Assembly (NCBI GenBank): GCA_963662405.2
Contig: CAXXKT010000003.1
Span: 160,001 to 224,000 of the forward strand
Length of the DNA stretch: 64,000 nucleotides
Direction: 5' to 3'
Source: Syntrophales bacterium
Lineage (GTDB): Bacteria > Desulfobacterota > Syntrophia > Syntrophales > UBA2210
The notes under the pieces were generated by a model. That model was not told where the DNA came from, searched no databases, and saw nothing but the letters and a program-made list of their open reading frames with translations. Made by a program: the position numbers and the translations under genes. Numbering within the stretch: position 1 is the first letter of the stretch; the number at the start of each line of letters is the position of its first letter. Shown here in pieces: positions 3,475-62,363 of the stretch.

Positions 3475-3634
3475 ACAACCGCACCCGGGCGGAGGGATGG
3501 AACACCTGAAGGCGGGATGCGCATGACTGATAAGACACCGTTGAGAAATATGAGAATCAAGGAGAACCCGGCCATATCAACCGATATGCCGTCGGTATGT
3601 CTTTTTGCTCTTAAACAATAGAGTAAGAGAGCGT

Positions 3635-3771
3635 GATCAGGACACGGAAGACGGTGTAAATCCGTCGCGGACGCGCCACTGTAACTGACGAAAACCCATC
3701 ACAGTCACTGCCGTTTACCGGTGGGAAGACGGAGATATCTGAGGGGTCAGAAGCCAGGAGACGACCTGATC
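3635..3771 (+). promoter_or_regulatory. Cobalamin riboswitch 2 (metE leader)
   Basis: P1 GATCAGG/CCTGATC; CGGAAgacGGTGTAAATCCgtcgCGGacgCGCCACTGTAA; AGTCACTG...GGGAAGAC; AAGCCAGGAGAC; lies upstream of metE. Confidence 0.88.
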
Positions 3772-3884
3772 GGGTGGAGTACGACTGTCTCGCGAACAGG
3801 CAGGAATGCGATCGGGTGTCGCCCGGCAGCGGCTTTTTGCCATATGAATTGCTGTGCTTCGTGCCGCGCTTTGCCGGACATGTC

Positions 3885-10227: not shown

Positions 10228-10301
10228 TGGCTGGGGGACAAGGATTCGAACCTTGATTGACGGAGTCAGAGTCCGCTGTCCTACCATTGAACGATCCCCC
10301 A
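10228..10301 (-). tRNA. tRNA-Gln(CTG)
   Basis: Reverse complement TGGGGGATCGTTCAATGGTAGGACAGCGGACTCTGACTCCGTCAATCAAGGTTCGAATCCTTGTCCCCCAGCCA; anticodon CTG, encoded CCA. Confidence 0.96.
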
Positions 10302-18796: not shown

Positions 18797-18940
18797 TTGA
18801 CATATGGGGGAAAAGAAGATAAGGGATCTATGAAATCTTTATAATTCGATGTGTTTAACCGGCTGTAACCAAAGGGGGGATTATGGCCTGACCATGCAAA
18901 GCCTTATTTTCTCGGGATAGGAGAGATAGGGCTTTTTTTG
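18797..18940 (+). promoter_or_regulatory. Conserved leader element copy A (promoter, hairpin with SD and mini-ORF ATG-GCC-TGA, intrinsic terminator)
   Basis: TTGACA 18797, N17, TAAGGG; GGCTGTAACCAAAGGGGGGATTATGGCCTGACCATGCAAAGCC; terminator 18898-18939; homologous to 52043-52193 (-). Confidence 0.65.
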
Positions 18941-19001: not shown

Positions 19002-19580
19002 ATGAATGCATTTGACCTTGCATATGAGCATGATTCTGCGCTCCATGTCGTTCGTGAATGGATCGAAGCAACGCTGGACGAATACCGGAGCCAGGCCGTT
19101 CCCGTCAGTGATTTCGACTTTCCTCGGCTGCAGAAGGTGCTCCCCCCCGATCTTCTCAGCAGGGTAAAGGTGGTGGTTGTCCCGGGGGACGTTCCGCTGC
19201 CGCCATTGGACAGTATGGGCTTTCCTGAATTTACCCGTATGGGAAGCAGGGCCGCGGCAGGCGTAACGTATGAAGATACGTTCTTTGTCAACAACCGTTG
19301 CCGGACCGAGAGTCTCTGCTTTCACGAGCTGATCCATGTCCTCCAATGGGCCCGGCTCGGGACCGATCATTTCCTGGTTGCGTATGGTACCGGCCTGATC
19401 CAGCTCGGATACCGGAATTGCCCCCTGGAACGGATGGCATTTTCCCTCCAGGCCAAATTGAGCCTGAAGACACTCCCCGAAGATGTTGTCAGTTGGGTTT
19501 ATGAGAAGACCGATGCCGTCTGGGACCGCGTGACCTCGTTCCTGAACGAGGGGTCTCGGCAAAGAGCGGTGATCGGCTAA
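19002..19580 (+). CDS. Hypothetical HExxH zincin-like protein (DUF4157-like)
   Basis: GVTYEDTFFV...FHELIHVLQW...PLERMA; GAGG SD. Confidence 0.7.
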   Translation: MNAFDLAYEHDSALHVVREWIEATLDEYRSQAVPVSDFDFPRLQKVLPPDLLSRVKVVVVPGDVPLPPLDSMGFPEFTRMGSRAAAGVTYEDTFFVNNRCRTESLCFHELIHVLQWARLGTDHFLVAYGTGLIQLGYRNCPLERMAFSLQAKLSLKTLPEDVVSWVYEKTDAVWDRVTSFLNEGSRQRAVIG

Positions 19581-33111: not shown

Positions 33112-33197
33112 GGAGGGATGGCCGAGTGGTCGAAGGCGGCGGTCTTGAAAACCGTTAACCGAAAGGTTCGCGGGTTCGAATCCTGCTCCCTCCGCCA
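33112..33197 (+). tRNA. tRNA-Ser(TGA)
   Basis: GGAGGGATGGCCGAGTGG...GGTCTTGAAAACC, long variable arm, GTTCGAATCC, ends GCCA. Confidence 0.95.
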
Positions 33198-33264
33198 TAT
33201 ACTGTGACCATCGCGCCACAGGTTGGTTCTTAAACAGTAGTATCTGATATGGCGGCACAAAAGC

Positions 33265-33358
<94 letters not shown>

Positions 33359-33370
33359 TTCAAATCATGT

Positions 33371-33447
33371 GCGCCCATGGCTCAGCTGGATAGAGCGTCG
33401 GACTACGAATCCGAAGGTCCTAGGTTCGAATCCTAGTGGGCGTACCA
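33371..33447 (+). tRNA. tRNA-Arg(ACG); integration site of the island
   Basis: GCGCCCATGGCTCAGCTGGATAGAGCG-TCGGA-CTACGAA-TCCGA...GTTCGAATCC...ACCA. Confidence 0.95.
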
Positions 33448-49902: not shown

Positions 49903-50068
49903 TAAGCAGAGTGCCCCATTGTGCCTGAATGGACCGAACCGAACCCAAAATGACCGCAAGCACATTAAGTCGAATGAGCGTGAGAATCGAAATGTCGAAA
50001 ACGCGACTGGCTGTGTCTCCTTCTTTAGCTACTTCCACTATCTCCCATGTCCGTTTCCGGATATTCAT
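49903..50068 (-). pseudogene. Ion transporter (K+ channel-like) 5' fragment truncated by IS630
   Basis: RKRTWEIVEVAKEGDTASRVFDISILTLIRLNVLAVILGSV; ATGA overlap with the DUF4236 gene; no continuation beyond the IS. Confidence 0.6.
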
Positions 50069-51246
50069 GCTGCGTTGCTCTCCTTTTCCCCATGGATCAG
50101 TAGGTCAATCACGCGTCCGATGTAGATGGGAGTGTCGATCTTCAATATGATTGGCTTGCCTGATCCAACTTTAGTTATCTCGATTGTTCCCTCATCAATA
50201 TCAACATTCAGATCGCCAATATCCGAGAGCCGTATATTGGTAGTGCCATTACCCACGACGAACACTCGTTTGTTTGTCAGGATCAGAGTTCCGTCGCGTC
50301 GTATTGTGTATTCGTATCCAGTCAGGGAGTTTTTCGATTTCCGTTTTGAGAGAACCTGAACTTGGCATTGATAGAAAGCGTTTTCGCTCTTCTGTATTGG
50401 CTCTGAAAGATCACAACGTGGTATGGTCTCAAGGGGTAGTCGTAGAGCCTGCGTGTCCATGATTTCCTGTACGATGTCAAGCTCACGTTGAACTTCGGTT
50501 TGGGGAATTGCCAATCCAACCATGAGGTTAATAAGTTTGTTGAGTTCTTCCTGTGTAATTTTACGATCTTGAATAGCTTCAATATAGGCGGCTGAGAATA
50601 TTTCTTTCTTTGCCCGTAGTCGTGTGTTTGGGTCAATCCCTAAAGTCTTTTCAACTGTGGCGATCGTCGCCGCTTCTTCCTTTGTGATGAATCCGTCGTC
50701 GAGAACCTTGTCAAGGAAAGCTTGATAGACATCAGCCTCTATCTTTTCGACAGATCGCTTGCTTGCTTGGGTCTTCGGTAATTCCTGTTGCTGTTGCTTC
50801 AGGCTGGCAAGCACCCCGGCAGATGGCGGTGATTGTGCGGTAACGAACGCTGAATCAAGAAATTGCTTGTAGACAGTGACAATCTTCTGCTGGCGAAGCT
50901 GGATGTGCCAGTAGATAACAGGAATGCCGATTGCTGCAACGATGAAAAGGATAAGAACAGTCGGGTTCTTCACCAACCATCGAAATAGCCATACTCCGAG
51001 TACAATCGCAATAGCAACGAACAATATCGTGACCCCCTTGCCATCTGAACTCGATTGGGTACGTGTATGGCCGGATGAAAGGTGTTTCCGGTAATAAAGG
51101 CCGTGCCGGCCTGCATGAACGTATGTTCCCCGAGGACCAACGCCAAGGCGCGCCCCTTTTACGCCGCCAGAGAGGCCGAGGCCACTTTTCGATAGGTTGA
51201 AACGAACCGGCCCAGCGCGGAAGCTTTTTCTCAGGTAAAGGCCCAT
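50065..51246 (-). CDS. DUF4236 domain membrane protein
   Basis: N-terminus MGLYLRKSFRAGPVRFNLSKSGLGLSGGVKGARL..GLYYRK; two TM helices; C-terminal GTLILTNKRVFVVG (PH-like); AAGGAGG SD. Confidence 0.8.
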   Translation of the reverse strand: MGLYLRKSFRAGPVRFNLSKSGLGLSGGVKGARLGVGPRGTYVHAGRHGLYYRKHLSSGHTRTQSSSDGKGVTILFVAIAIVLGVWLFRWLVKNPTVLILFIVAAIGIPVIYWHIQLRQQKIVTVYKQFLDSAFVTAQSPPSAGVLASLKQQQQELPKTQASKRSVEKIEADVYQAFLDKVLDDGFITKEEAATIATVEKTLGIDPNTRLRAKKEIFSAAYIEAIQDRKITQEELNKLINLMVGLAIPQTEVQRELDIVQEIMDTQALRLPLETIPRCDLSEPIQKSENAFYQCQVQVLSKRKSKNSLTGYEYTIRRDGTLILTNKRVFVVGNGTTNIRLSDIGDLNVDIDEGTIEITKVGSGKPIILKIDTPIYIGRVIDLLIHGEKESNAA

Positions 51247-51306: not shown

Positions 51307-52042
51307 GGGTCTTGACTAGAACAGCACACGGAAATATGTTAAGAGTCTAGTCATGTCAATAAGTAACAAGTATGTAAAAAATTCCAAAATTTCAGAGGCA
51401 AAATTTAGAGAGATCGTGAAGTATTTTGCCTTCGATTTGGATGCTCAAACCATCGCTCTTTTAACAAAACTCAATAGAAATACGGTGAATCGATATCTGT
51501 CTTTGATTCGTCAACGTATAGCTGATCTGTGCGAAGAAGAATCACCATTTCAGGGTGAAATCGAGGTTGACGAATCATATTTCGGTGCAAAACGTATCAA
51601 AGGGAAACGAGGCCGTGGGGCCGGGAGAAAAACCCCTGTATTCGGTATCCTGCAACGAAAAGGCAGTGTCTATACCGAAATCGTTCCCGATTGCGCCAGG
51701 AAGACTCTCCAGGCCATTATCAGGGGCAAAGTTGAACCGAATAGTGTCATACATTCAGATAGTTGGAGAGGCTATGATGGTTTGGTTGACTTGGGATACA
51801 AAAAGCATTACCGTGTTCATCACGGAGCCAATGAATTTGCCAGGGGGAAAAGCCACATCAATGGCATTGAATCCTTCTGGTCATTCGCAAAACGGAGGCT
51901 GATGAAGTTCCATGGTATTCCACAATCAACCTTTTACCTGCATCTCAAGGAATGTGAGTTCCGGTTCAACAACCGTAACACCGATATCTATAAATTGTTG
52001 TTAAAGAACTTCAAAAATAAACCGCTGTTCTAGTCAAGACCC
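51307..52042 (+). mobile_element. IS1595-family IS, copy 1 (736 bp)
   Basis: 19-bp IR GGGTCTTGACTAGAACAGC; 8-bp TSD AAAAACAA (51299-51306, 52043-52050). Confidence 0.95.
51353..52033 (+). CDS. IS1595-family transposase
   Basis: IEVDESYFG, HSDSWRGY, HINGIESFWS, KECEFRFN. Confidence 0.93.
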   Translation: MSISNKYVKNSKISEAKFREIVKYFAFDLDAQTIALLTKLNRNTVNRYLSLIRQRIADLCEEESPFQGEIEVDESYFGAKRIKGKRGRGAGRKTPVFGILQRKGSVYTEIVPDCARKTLQAIIRGKVEPNSVIHSDSWRGYDGLVDLGYKKHYRVHHGANEFARGKSHINGIESFWSFAKRRLMKFHGIPQSTFYLHLKECEFRFNNRNTDIYKLLLKNFKNKPLF

Positions 52043-52193
52043 AAAAACAAAAGCCCCATCTCTCATTTTGAGAAACAGGGCTTTGATGATCAGACCATAA
52101 TCCTCCTTGGTTACAGCTGTTCATAAGCAGATATAATACAGATATTTCAATGAAACATGTTGACCCTTTAACTCCATGTTGGTGTCATGTCAA
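52043..52193 (-). promoter_or_regulatory. Conserved leader element copy B (promoter, hairpin with SD and mini-ORF ATG-GTC-TGA, intrinsic terminator)
   Basis: Minus strand: TTGACA (52193-52188), N17, TAAAGG; AGCTGTAACCAAGGAGGATTATGGTCTGATCATCAAAGCCCTGTTTCTC-AAAAT-GAGAGATGGGGCTTTTGTTTTT. Confidence 0.65.
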
Positions 52194-61338: not shown

Positions 61339-61489
61339 GAGGACATTCGAACGGCTGCGGTTTCTTGAGCGTGGCGCATCGGCCGACATTCACCGTCAAT
61401 GATATGACGGATCATTGCTTTCATAGCTTCTCCCTCGCAGGCTCGTGCCGGGGTCCGCATCTCTCTTCTTTTCGTGCATAAATTTATTA

Positions 61490-62225
61490 GGGTCTTGACT
61501 AGAACAGCACACGGAAATATGTTAAGAGTCTAGTCATGTCAATAAGTAACAAGTATGTAAAAAATTCCAAAATTTCAGAGGCAAAATTTAGAGAGATCGT
61601 GAAGTATTTTGCCTTCGATTTGGATGCTCAAACCATCGCTCTTTTAACAAAACTCAATAGAAATACGGTGAATCGATATCTGTCTTTGATTCGTCAACGT
61701 ATAGCTGATCTGTGCGAAGAAGAATCACCATTTCAGGGTGAAATCGAGGTTGACGAATCATATTTCGGTGCAAAACGTATCAAAGGGAAACGAGGCCGTG
61801 GGGCCGGGAGAAAAACCCCTGTATTCGGTATCCTGCAACGAAAAGGCAGTGTCTATACCGAAATCGTTCCCGATTGCGCCAGGAAGACTCTCCAGGCCAT
61901 TATCAGGGGCAAAGTTGAACCGAATAGTGTCATACATTCAGATAGTTGGAGAGGCTATGATGGTTTGGTTGACTTGGGATACAAAAAGCATTACCGTGTT
62001 CATCACGGAGCCAATGAATTTGCCAGGGGGAAAAGCCACATCAATGGCATTGAATCCTTCTGGTCATTCGCAAAACGGAGGCTGATGAAGTTCCATGGTA
62101 TTCCACAATCAACCTTTTACCTGCATCTCAAGGAATGTGAGTTCCGGTTCAACAACCGTAACACCGATATCTATAAATTGTTGTTAAAGAACTTCAAAAA
62201 TAAACCGCTGTTCTAGTCAAGACCC
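61490..62225 (+). mobile_element. IS1595-family IS, copy 2 (736 bp)
   Basis: Same IRs as copy 1; 8-bp TSD ATTTATTA (61482-61489, 62226-62233). Confidence 0.95.
61536..62216 (+). CDS. IS1595-family transposase
   Basis: Protein identical to 51353-52033. Confidence 0.93.
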   Translation: MSISNKYVKNSKISEAKFREIVKYFAFDLDAQTIALLTKLNRNTVNRYLSLIRQRIADLCEEESPFQGEIEVDESYFGAKRIKGKRGRGAGRKTPVFGILQRKGSVYTEIVPDCARKTLQAIIRGKVEPNSVIHSDSWRGYDGLVDLGYKKHYRVHHGANEFARGKSHINGIESFWSFAKRRLMKFHGIPQSTFYLHLKECEFRFNNRNTDIYKLLLKNFKNKPLF

Positions 62226-62363
62226 ATTTATTATTACGGATAGTTCCCGTTTCCCTGCGGTGGGAGAGGGGGGGCTATCTGCCGGGCATGCCTCTTGCTT
62301 TTTGATGGTTGTATCGGAACGCAACTCACCGGCAAGGGACGGATTGAAGGTGGTTACCTGGCT

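Follow-up and report, generated by a model that had tools for sequence, protein, structure and literature searches.

Introduction

Among the attenuators described so far, those in which a ribosome covers part of a leader terminator appear to be the closest to the element studied here, a repeated intergenic leader unit of approximately 220 nt that occurs as copy A (18797-18940, + strand) and copy B (52043-52193, - strand) in a 64,000-nt stretch of a Syntrophales bacterium genome (GenBank assembly GCA_963662405.2, contig CAXXKT010000003.1, positions 160,001 to 224,000), which is referred to as the window. The attenuator of the E. coli ampC gene (Jaurin et al. 1981, as cited in PMC3660660) is reportedly one of them. 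For E. coli tR2, placing the stop codon 5 bp instead of 28 bp upstream lowered termination from about 90% to below 10%, the effect was lost when translation was uncoupled, and the pyrBI leader is cited in the same article as an example of ribosome occlusion (PMC4824070). Like tR2, pyrBI and ampC, the Syntrophales unit has a frame that ends a few bases before a leader terminator, where a ribosome at the stop would block the stem; read-through needs coupled translation in those systems and, as predicted from its sequence, would do so in the unit, and no antiterminator is needed. The ampC attenuator reportedly has a start-stop arrangement, for which a growth-rate logic is said to have been proposed. 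Unlike these three systems, the Syntrophales unit has a frame of two codons, a start codon within a conserved hairpin, a promoter-like box of its own and about 50 copies per genome in front of unrelated genes.

A second group of counterparts is found before antibiotic-resistance genes. The lmo0919 leader, associated with Dar et al. 2016, is reportedly an antibiotic-responsive attenuator with a short upstream open reading frame (uORF) before an ABC-F gene. The vmlR leader carries a predicted three-codon uORF before a terminator, and inhibitors that trap the ribosome at the start codon were proposed as its input (PMC9226507). The Syntrophales unit shares with both of them a very short uORF with a Shine-Dalgarno (SD) sequence upstream of a leader terminator, an arrangement in which stalling near the start is thought to promote read-through. 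Unlike these leaders, which use alternative hairpins and stand in single copy before one gene class, the unit has no detectable alternative pairing, is multi-copy and precedes diverse genes. Naville and Gautheret (2010) described "mobile attenuators", i.e., conserved premature terminators upstream of non-homologous genes in one or a few related species, which were found in Enterobacteria and bacilli and were derived mostly from the 3' or 5' terminators of insertion sequences (IS) or from bacterial interspersed mosaic elements; neither "Syntrophus" nor "Deltaproteobacteria" occurs in that article (PMC2965389). Conserved terminators before non-homologous genes are common to the mobile attenuators, as described there, and to the Syntrophales unit; unlike them, the unit is not an IS end, has a promoter-like box and a conserved mini-ORF and spans an order, and its terminator is not the end of an IS or a prophage. 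In the topAI-yjhQ transcript of E. coli, the toiL uORF senses translation stress and gates a toxin-type operon (PMC12121999). The resemblance lies in a leader uORF that gates an accessory operon. The toiL system is said to be Rho-dependent and single-copy and to have a longer uORF, unlike the Syntrophales unit.

Our best reading is that the unit would belong mechanistically with the ribosome-dependent attenuators that act by terminator occlusion and not with the classical two-hairpin type. It differs from the systems named above in the two-codon frame, the start-sequestering hairpin and the built-in promoter-like box, together with the copy number, the order-wide spread and the bias to defence and other accessory genes.

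Size and distribution of the leader family

The sequence-only reading that drew attention to copies A and B had taken them for homologous members of a candidate undescribed RNA family, an observation that is confirmed and that had been understated. The two copies share 74% mean column identity over 260 columns and contain the strings quoted for them, and the true count in their own genome (three contigs, 3.8 Mb, GC 0.52-0.54) is 49. BLAST with copies A and B as queries found 49 places, and iterated nhmmer found 49 units at an expectation value (E) of E<1e-8, while its matches at E<=1e-3 grew from 48 to 56 to 64. The units are 75-85% identical to each other, and the similarity of copies A and B is far above chance. 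No named RNA family accounts for them either. In the whole window, Rfam 15 at the gathering threshold matched only two cobalamin riboswitches and four tRNAs and left the leader unmatched; copy A at E<=10 gave only noise (BsrC with 18.6 bits against a threshold of 38 and on the opposite strand, and SNORD75); and 20 units searched at E<=1 gave one SNORD56 match and sub-threshold NsiR1 matches in 4/20, which scored 21.9-28.2 bits against a threshold of 39 and covered the terminator hairpin alone. An earlier description of the element was not found in a limited literature search, which left most of the subscription journals uncovered.

The proposed check with a covariance model and related genomes was run, and the family was present in 50/101 genomes sampled around the window's genome (G000), with G000 included. 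Without G000, it was found in 29/37 genomes of the same family (7/7 in genus g1, 12/14 in g10 and 0/6 in g4) and in several other families of the order, namely f20 (3/3), f7 (4/4), f6 (2/4), f15 (2/3), f17 (2/2), f21 (2/3) and f22 (2/2). As a rule it is present in several copies, and a single genome reached 26 scored matches. In a phylum-wide sample, 5/151 genomes matched at E<=1e-6, among them the window's genome and a congener; the remaining three, which lie outside the order, had one weak match each. An exact-pattern scan of species-representative genomes returned 23 loci, whose titles name metagenome-assembled genomes of Syntrophales or Syntrophaceae, two entries of "Deltaproteobacteria bacterium", one "Candidatus Theseobacter exili" and one bin of an "uncultured archaeon". 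No record of the plasmid collection matched the unit. Two short IMG/VR contigs (L181 and L182) carry a full-scoring unit (95.4 bits) upstream of a 225-aa open reading frame (ORF), for which no Pfam family was found.

Architecture of the unit

In order, the unit consists of a promoter-like box, a hairpin that we call H1, an SD sequence with a two-codon frame and an intrinsic terminator. In the window, these parts are placed as follows (MFE, minimum free energy).

18797-18802, + strand: TTGACA of the copy A promoter-like box, followed by a 17-nt spacer and TAAGGG at 18820-18825 (from the sequence)
18849..18895, + strand: hairpin H1 of copy A (MFE fold)
18861-18870, + strand: 5' arm of H1 in copy A, GGCUGUAACC
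18871-18879, + strand: purine-rich SD-like run of copy A, AAAGGGGGG, partly in the H1 loop
+ strand, after the loop: 3' arm of H1 in copy A, GGAUUAUGGCC.., with the start codon within it (MFE fold)
18883-18891, + strand: mini-ORF of copy A, ATG GCC TGA (Met-Ala-stop)
18898-18939, + strand: intrinsic terminator of copy A, AAAGCCUUAUUUUCUC / GAGAGAUAGGGCUUU, then a U-run (-17.2 kcal/mol)
52193-52188, - strand: TTGACA of the copy B promoter-like box, followed by a 17-nt spacer and TAAAGG at 52170-52165
52086..52124, - strand: hairpin H1 of copy B, AUGAACAGCUGUAACC / GGAUUAUGGUCUGAUCAU, with AAGGA in the loop (MFE fold)
52098-52090, - strand: mini-ORF of copy B, ATG GTC TGA (Met-Val-stop)
52084-52050, - strand: intrinsic terminator of copy B, 16 pairs (called by a simple scan)
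52043..52084, - strand: terminator of copy B with its U-tract

An alignment of the 36 best own copies with their flanks gave the consensus. A moderately conserved 5' part (...CACCTAC..CAGGAGAAAATCGATTATTAC..TTGAAAGTCTC..GTAAAAT) leads to a near-invariant CTTGACA and, 17 nt on, to a conserved TA, beyond which come TTTGATCTTGA and then GCTTGTGAACAGCTGTAACC; the purine run (A)AGGAGGGG is followed by ATTATGGTCTGATCATC, and the terminator reads AAAGCCCTGTTTCTC-loop-GAGAGATGGGGCTTTT, then GTTTTTTGTG. A U-rich stretch of about 45 nt separates the TA box from H1. Outside the terminator, the best-conserved columns are CTTGACA, GGATTATGG and CTGA; CTTGACA and the TA at the 17-nt spacing are the top upstream columns across the 36 copies and recur in other genera. 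In the consensus GGAGG-GGAUU-AUG, the spacing from SD to start is 5 nt. The terminator is a 15-bp GC-rich hairpin with a U-tract, and its stem starts 3-8 nt past the stop codon (6 nt in copy A, whose terminator was overlooked by the simple scan because its loop is long). The TTGACA-N17-TAARGG element that had been noted upstream is present as a sequence in both copies; a simple sigma-70 scan of the E. coli type called it in neither, since its second hexamer matches the E. coli consensus at the TA alone. The TGAAAT box pointed out in the two copies is not a family-wide feature, the consensus at that place being TTTGATCTTGA.

In many of the units, the motif GUGAACAG(C), whose letters are those with which the H1 5' arm begins, recurs just past the terminator U-tract (UUUUGUUUUUUGUGAAC...), for example at G000:C1:1831014-1831139, at C3:390438-390562, in L156 and in L157; some of the copies with this motif then share a further TTAGAAAATAT-like motif.

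Conservation of the two-codon frame and of the hairpins

Conservation of the start and stop codons had been named as a check on the attenuator model, and it was borne out in 38/49 own copies, which carry ATG-NNN-TGA (23 Met-Val, 8 Met-Ala, 5 Met-Ile and 2 Met-Asp). The ATG and TGA columns are near-invariant, and variation is seen at the first two positions of codon 2. Of the 38 two-codon copies, 37 have 3-8 nt between the stop and the terminator stem, and the remaining one has a degenerate terminator. As for the other copies, four in which the UGA is lost or the start is GTG run on, three of them for 11 codons until a UGA in frame within the terminator loop and the fourth for 5 codons until a stop just before the stem; in three, the frame runs past the end of the stretch that was examined; and four have no SD-plus-start.

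It is the divergent families of the order that speak decisively for a mini-ORF kept as an ORF: in a differing sequence, they retain an SD, an AUG or GUG, one to five codons and a stop that abuts the terminator (MV*, MD*, ME*, VE*, MGRL*, MSGF*, MCRL* and MEGYK*), and they have an arm further upstream to which the SD or the start codon can pair. Under a fixed criterion, i.e., an SD word that precedes ATG or GTG by 4-13 nt, a frame of at most eight codons and a stop between 4 nt inside the stem and 12 nt before it, 16/26 divergent members scored compared with 0.74 on average and 5 at most when the same 50-nt stretches were shuffled 2000 times, although these 26 rows had been picked by a model that contains the motif and include paralogues. 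The copies of genome G043 read ..AACCCUUUAAC..GAGGGU..AUG GUC/GAC/GAG UGA.. and then the terminator, and the upstream arm of these leaders pairs with the SD and not with the start codon. In genus g29, one group reads ..CCCUUUU..AAAGAGGGAAUC AUG GGC AGA UUA UAA, with the peptides MGRL*, MCRL*, MGRS*, MSGF* and MEGYK*; the MEGYK* copy has lost one base, and its shifted frame reaches a new UAA three codons on; a second group reads CACGGU-loop(AACAGGAGGGA)-ACC GUG GAG UGA. A CCCUU(U) arm that sequesters the SD before a frame of two to five codons was seen in the divergent leaders L155, L158, L164, L169, L174 and L178 (G043) and L161-L180 (g29). The peptides MGRL*, MCRL* and LKRL* (with a TTG start) share an Arg-Leu-stop ending.

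The differences between the terminator stems of copies A and B had been said to keep the pairing, which holds for the family, as 95.7% of the cells are paired over 15 pairs. RNAalifold on 39 own copies, which resemble each other too closely for covariation, predicted the terminator as the sole helix. In the MFE structure of most of the 39 folded copies, H1 is present as a long imperfect hairpin upstream of the terminator. Its arms are UGUGAACAGCUGUAACC and GGAUUAUGGUCUGAUCA(UC); the SD-like purines fall within the loop or beside it, and the 3' arm contains the AUG, codon 2 and the UGA. The pairing GCUGUAACC:GGAUUAUGG noted earlier is the top of H1, and the claim that an upstream segment can pair with GGATTATGGY stands in the form GCTGTAACC:GGATTATGG, as part of this longer hairpin with 86-92% of the cells paired. 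H1 is 86-88% paired in the 39 own copies, in which its 3' arm is invariant and its 5' arm varies in a wobble-compatible manner (at two pairs, A-U replaces G-U in 7 to 17 copies). H1 is 87-92% paired in 45 distinct relatives, with one or more sequences carrying a double change at 9/15 pairs; for the structure as a whole, the paired share is 93.2%. Double-change pairs number 11 (9 of them in H1) compared with 4.2 +/- 1.5 in the shuffles, and 0/500 shuffles reach 11, in an alignment that was fitted to the model and hence leans towards structure.

H1 and the terminator are adjacent, do not overlap and do not compete, and mutually exclusive terminator and antiterminator hairpins of the trp/erm type were not found. 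The antiterminator that had been suggested, a pairing of the SD run with TTTCTC in the terminator 5' arm, is rejected because at -6.2 kcal/mol it is no better than a shuffled SD run (-5.7 kcal/mol), compared with -19.4 kcal/mol for the terminator arms. Two other candidates were also discarded. The small hairpin GAUUAU/AUCAUC alone is 76.5% paired compared with 86-88% for H1, with which it is mutually exclusive, and H1 was preferred; and the arms do not fit the RYYYAAC/GTTRRRY cores of an integron attC site (judged by eye).

These data bear on the explanation that the unit is a portable promoter with a leaky terminator, which sets a low fixed expression of acquired genes or insulates them and senses nothing, ATG-NNN-TGA being kept as an arm of H1. 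The pairing of the mini-ORF bases with the H1 5' arm agrees with it, as do the lack of an antiterminator alternative, the 11/49 copies that have no frame yet keep the terminator and the precedent of "mobile attenuators" and attenuator regulons before unrelated genes (PMC2965389). It does not account for the divergent members, which keep the SD, start, short frame and stop though their nucleotides and hairpin partners differ, nor for a stop-to-stem spacing held at 3-8 nt. Moreover, the H1 3' arm is invariant while the 5' arm drifts via wobble pairs, an indication that the 3' arm is constrained by something further. We regard this explanation as unlikely.

Alternatively, read-through could be under the control of a specific factor instead of the ribosome; the factor, which would recognise H1 or the invariant GGAUUAUGGUCUGAUCAUC, might be an RNA-binding antiterminator protein, a specialised RfaH/LoaP-type NusG paralogue or a small RNA. 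The H1 3' arm is near-invariant and more conserved than pairing alone requires, and one leader shared by many operons of horizontal origin resembles RfaH and its ops/JUMPStart logic. However, the divergent subfamilies keep the ORF-like features and not the invariant sequence. The NusG NGN domain shows no numerical relation to the leader, with mostly two matches per genome whether or not the leader is present and one or two in genus g4 (leader in 0/6), a comparison that is uninformative rather than negative. Such a factor seems very unlikely to us.

Genomic context and downstream genes

The context of the 49 own units was counted on a crude set of non-overlapping ORFs. None of the units (0/49) lies inside a called ORF, and the nearest downstream ORF is co-oriented in 42/49 at a median distance of about 100 nt, compared with 31/49 for the nearest upstream ORF. 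Orientation with respect to the downstream genes, another check that had been proposed, is strongly non-random: 38/49 units have the start of a co-oriented ORF within 300 nt compared with 3.7 on average and 10 at most for random windows of 200 nt. By a simpler count, a co-oriented ORF of 90 aa or more starts within 500 nt of 47/49 units. Two of the seven orientation exceptions are explained, i.e., copy A, whose true neighbour is a 192-aa HExxH protein on the + strand, and copy B, which is followed by an IS.

This bias bears on the alternative that the terminated leader of approximately 120-140 nt is a trans-acting, multi-copy small RNA (sRNA), which would act through its GGAGG-rich loop or the invariant 3' arm and for which the downstream genes are bystanders or secondary. 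The promoter-like box, the strong terminator and the long U-tract would suit an sRNA gene, 49 near-identical loci would give a large pool of RNA, and trans-acting terminated attenuator leaders such as rnTrpL have been reported. The orientation and distance bias is not expected for free-standing sRNA genes, and no target complementarity was found, though none was searched for beyond the unit itself. The purely stand-alone sRNA, which the sequence-only reading had offered as its alternative, is thus not supported in view of the co-orientation and proximity, and we consider the sRNA explanation as a whole distinctly unlikely, although sRNA action could coexist with attenuation in cis.

The unit is portable and sits before unrelated genes across the Syntrophales. 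Among the 47 downstream proteins, there were only 11 pairwise BLASTP alignments, nearly all of them between HD-GYP/GGDEF signalling proteins. The gene downstream of copy A illustrates the same point.

19002-19580, + strand: gene downstream of copy A, co-oriented, 192-aa protein with a HELIH (HExxH) motif

Its start lies 61 nt from the end of copy A, and no Pfam family was found for the protein. The sole homologue in 100 relatives (G079, 39% identity, E 7e-24) has an open frame, and 19002-19580 on the + strand is therefore taken as a real, sporadic gene; at the G079 locus, no match to the leader model was found at E<=1, in agreement with the earlier claim of a portable unit.

A Pfam family was found in 18 of the first 40 downstream proteins. 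Examples are AAA_15 with an OLD TOPRIM domain, TIR_2, Mrr_cat, HNH, DUF5677, DUF2971, patatin and Pkinase, and further three HD-GYP proteins, GGDEF, Lcl_C, a beta-helix protein and periplasmic binding proteins. Defence genes are enriched downstream of the units: 12 of the same 40 proteins match PADLOC models at E<=1e-5 (three of these being generic HD-domain matches) compared with 2/40 randomly drawn long ORFs of the genome. Full-length matches were obtained to GajA (745 bits), ThsB (370 bits) and PD-Lambda-5_A (442 bits), and the others are to PDC-S31, PDC-M14A, a kinase of the mad6/PD-T4-6 type, an HNH enzyme, an Mrr-type enzyme and a Ppl-like ATPase. In the relatives, 58 downstream ORFs were scanned against Pfam, and the genes include KAP NTPase, Shedu SduA_C, UvrD helicase, DUF4062, DUF6602, N6_N4 methylase, reverse transcriptase and HEPN_AbiV. 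The remote leaders of the G043 type precede metabolic genes (formamidase and CoA-transferase III). There was no ABC-F gene among the 98 downstream proteins scanned.

Some of the divergent leaders (G043 and g29) precede FAD-binding oxidoreductases. At G000:C1:433087-442042 (- strand), five divergent copies in one orientation stand 1.3-4.7 kb apart in an array-like manner, and the genes that follow them encode an NAD-dependent epimerase (Pfam), small predicted membrane proteins or lipoproteins and a multi-pass membrane protein, the last of which was judged by eye.

Insertion sequences at the units

Copy B is interrupted at its 3' end by an IS, and the features of this locus are listed below.

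51307-52042, + strand: IS1595-family element of 736 bp, inside the U-tract of copy B, with the terminal inverted repeats GGGTCTTGACTAGAACAGC
51353-52033: transposase DDE_Tnp_IS1595 (PF12762), 226 aa
51299-51306 and 52043-52050: 8-bp target-site duplication TTGTTTTT, one copy of which is the last 8 bases of copy B
50065-51246, - strand: DUF4236 gene (PF14020, E 4.9e-16), whose start lies 52 nt beyond the duplication

The DUF4236 gene is most likely the gene that copy B served before the insertion. The gap of about 55-60 nt to the next gene that was claimed for both copies holds for copy A (61 nt); for copy B, it is true only when the IS is subtracted (52 nt) and describes the state before the insertion, because the 736-bp element separates the unit from the DUF4236 gene. 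The IS1595 element (736-738 bp) has eight near-identical copies in the genome, one of which is in the window at 61489-62226. Another, at G000:C1:441243-441979, lies directly past the terminator of another unit (C1:441980), which suggests that the element prefers the T-rich tails of the leader units.

An IS110-family element, which encodes a 322-aa transposase and has a 5' non-coding region of about 240 nt, is present in five genome copies, all of them outside the window.

G000:C1:158565-159530: IS110-family copy
G000:C1:1415797-1416762: IS110-family copy
G000:C1:305373-306338: IS110-family copy
G000:C2:343293-344258: IS110-family copy
G000:C1:164049-165014: IS110-family copy

In 4/5 copies, the orientation is the same and the element occupies one and the same CACCT|AC-like position within a unit's 5' part, ending about 95 nt before the TTGACA; one of these four units consists of the promoter part only. 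The fifth copy is nested in the left end of another copy. The unit was also considered as the 3' end or bridge-RNA region of this element, a candidate that the IS boundaries rule out. The unit is a target of the element and not a part of it, because the IS ends upstream, one of the five IS copies has no unit core after it and most of the units, at least 45, are free of an IS. From the sequences, the insertion looks like a sequence-guided targeting of the leader repeat.

That the unit is itself a selfish or passively amplified repeat without a selected function, similar to a miniature inverted-repeat transposable element or a repetitive extragenic palindrome or left over from an IS end, might be supposed from its high copy number with 75-85% identity, its clustering in islands and the insertion of two IS families in or next to it. 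Neither terminal inverted repeats nor variable target duplications were seen in the unit, which does not belong to the IS110-family element and stands without an IS in at least 45 cases. Furthermore, the orientation bias is strict, and multiple copies persist across the families of the order with their ORF-like features conserved. A repeat of this kind is an extremely improbable explanation.

Proposed mechanism and its weight

The proposal of the sequence-only reading, an attenuator that senses ribosomes on a minimal frame, gains from the family, the conserved ATG-NNN-TGA, the orientation bias and the portability, and loses the antiterminator formed by the SD run and TTTCTC. In the revised form, the unit is probably a portable, ribosome-gated transcription attenuator that works by terminator occlusion, a judgement that we hold with some reserve. 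Transcription would start a few bases past the TA box and end by default at the terminator, which would give a leader of approximately 120-140 nt and leave the gene off. H1 would hide the start codon and make ribosome loading and initiation rare. Should a ribosome load on the strong SD while the RNA polymerase is still on the terminator, it would make formylmethionyl-X and wait with codon 2 in the P site while UGA occupies the A site. The mRNA would then be covered up to about +19 to +21, counted from the AUG, i.e., the 5-6-nt spacer and the AAAGC(CC) base of the terminator 5' arm; the size of the ribosome footprint is established knowledge. What is left of the hairpin would be truncated, contain many G-U pairs and be displaced from the U-tract by several bases, and the polymerase would therefore be expected to read through into the gene. 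In this way, about 50 accessory operons could be coupled to ribosome loading or dwell time on the start-stop frame. The candidate inputs are the level of free ribosomes, the speed of release or recycling at the UGA, drugs or toxins that trap ribosomes at start codons, temperature acting on H1 and a factor that opens H1.

Several results are consistent with this mechanism. When the footprint was masked, the mean MFE of 34 copies changed from -33.4 to -15.1 kcal/mol, and the masked fold leaves a G-U-rich hairpin of 9-11 bp, whose 3' end is apart from the U-run. The stop-to-stem distance of 3-8 nt lies around the experimental benchmark of 5 bp, as is expected for terminator occlusion, and an intrinsic terminator lies upstream of a co-oriented gene, as in leader attenuators in general. 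An alternative structure is not needed because the ribosome itself would occlude the base of the terminator.

Several considerations weigh against the mechanism. With no terminator/antiterminator alternative, the switch would rest on sterics alone. The -10 element is weak by the rules of E. coli, from which the consensus was taken, TA alone being conserved. The two-codon frame is missing in 11/49 own copies. As ATG...TGA lies within the H1 3' arm, part of its conservation could reflect RNA pairing or recognition by a factor. The copies within one genome are not independent, and, as mentioned above, the covariation alignment was fitted to the model and the divergent rows were picked by a model that contains the motif. 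A ribosome would have to load within about 1 s after SD synthesis on a start codon that is buried in H1, and no pause site was identified in the leader. The start site, the termination, the translation of the frame and the read-through are all deduced from the sequence. Taken with these points, the attenuator is still the best supported of the explanations considered and, in our estimate, a somewhat better than even one, the support being wholly comparative.

A further step, which we put forward tentatively and consider rather unlikely, is that one start-stop attenuator joins about fifty accessory operons per genome into a "ribosome-status" regulon that is released when ribosome loading or dwell time on the two-codon frame changes, for example because a phage or a toxin perturbs translation. 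If this were true, the regulon, with members such as Gabija, Thoeris-type TIR, PD-Lambda-5, OLD, HNH and Mrr nucleases, kinases and cyclic-di-GMP enzymes, would be an innate-immunity alarm that is read directly by the ribosome. Should the attenuator mechanism itself hold, it would show how defence islands can share one regulatory input in the absence of a regulator gene of their own. A module of about 220 nt with its own promoter would tie dozens of unrelated acquired genes, a set enriched for anti-phage systems, to the translational state, a two-codon start-stop frame would suffice as the only sensor of an attenuator, and a regulatory leader would be seen to spread as a portable cassette. The unit would also offer a defined, mutable element for studying terminator occlusion by ribosomes outside E. 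coli, and it would improve the annotation of about 50 intergenic regions per Syntrophales genome.

Other RNA features of the window

The Rfam gathering matches in the window comprise two cobalamin riboswitches that lie close together, a cluster of three tRNAs and a further tRNA.

2786-2993, + strand: cobalamin riboswitch
3621-3784, + strand: cobalamin riboswitch
10231-10301, - strand: tRNA
33112-33444, + strand: cluster of three tRNAs

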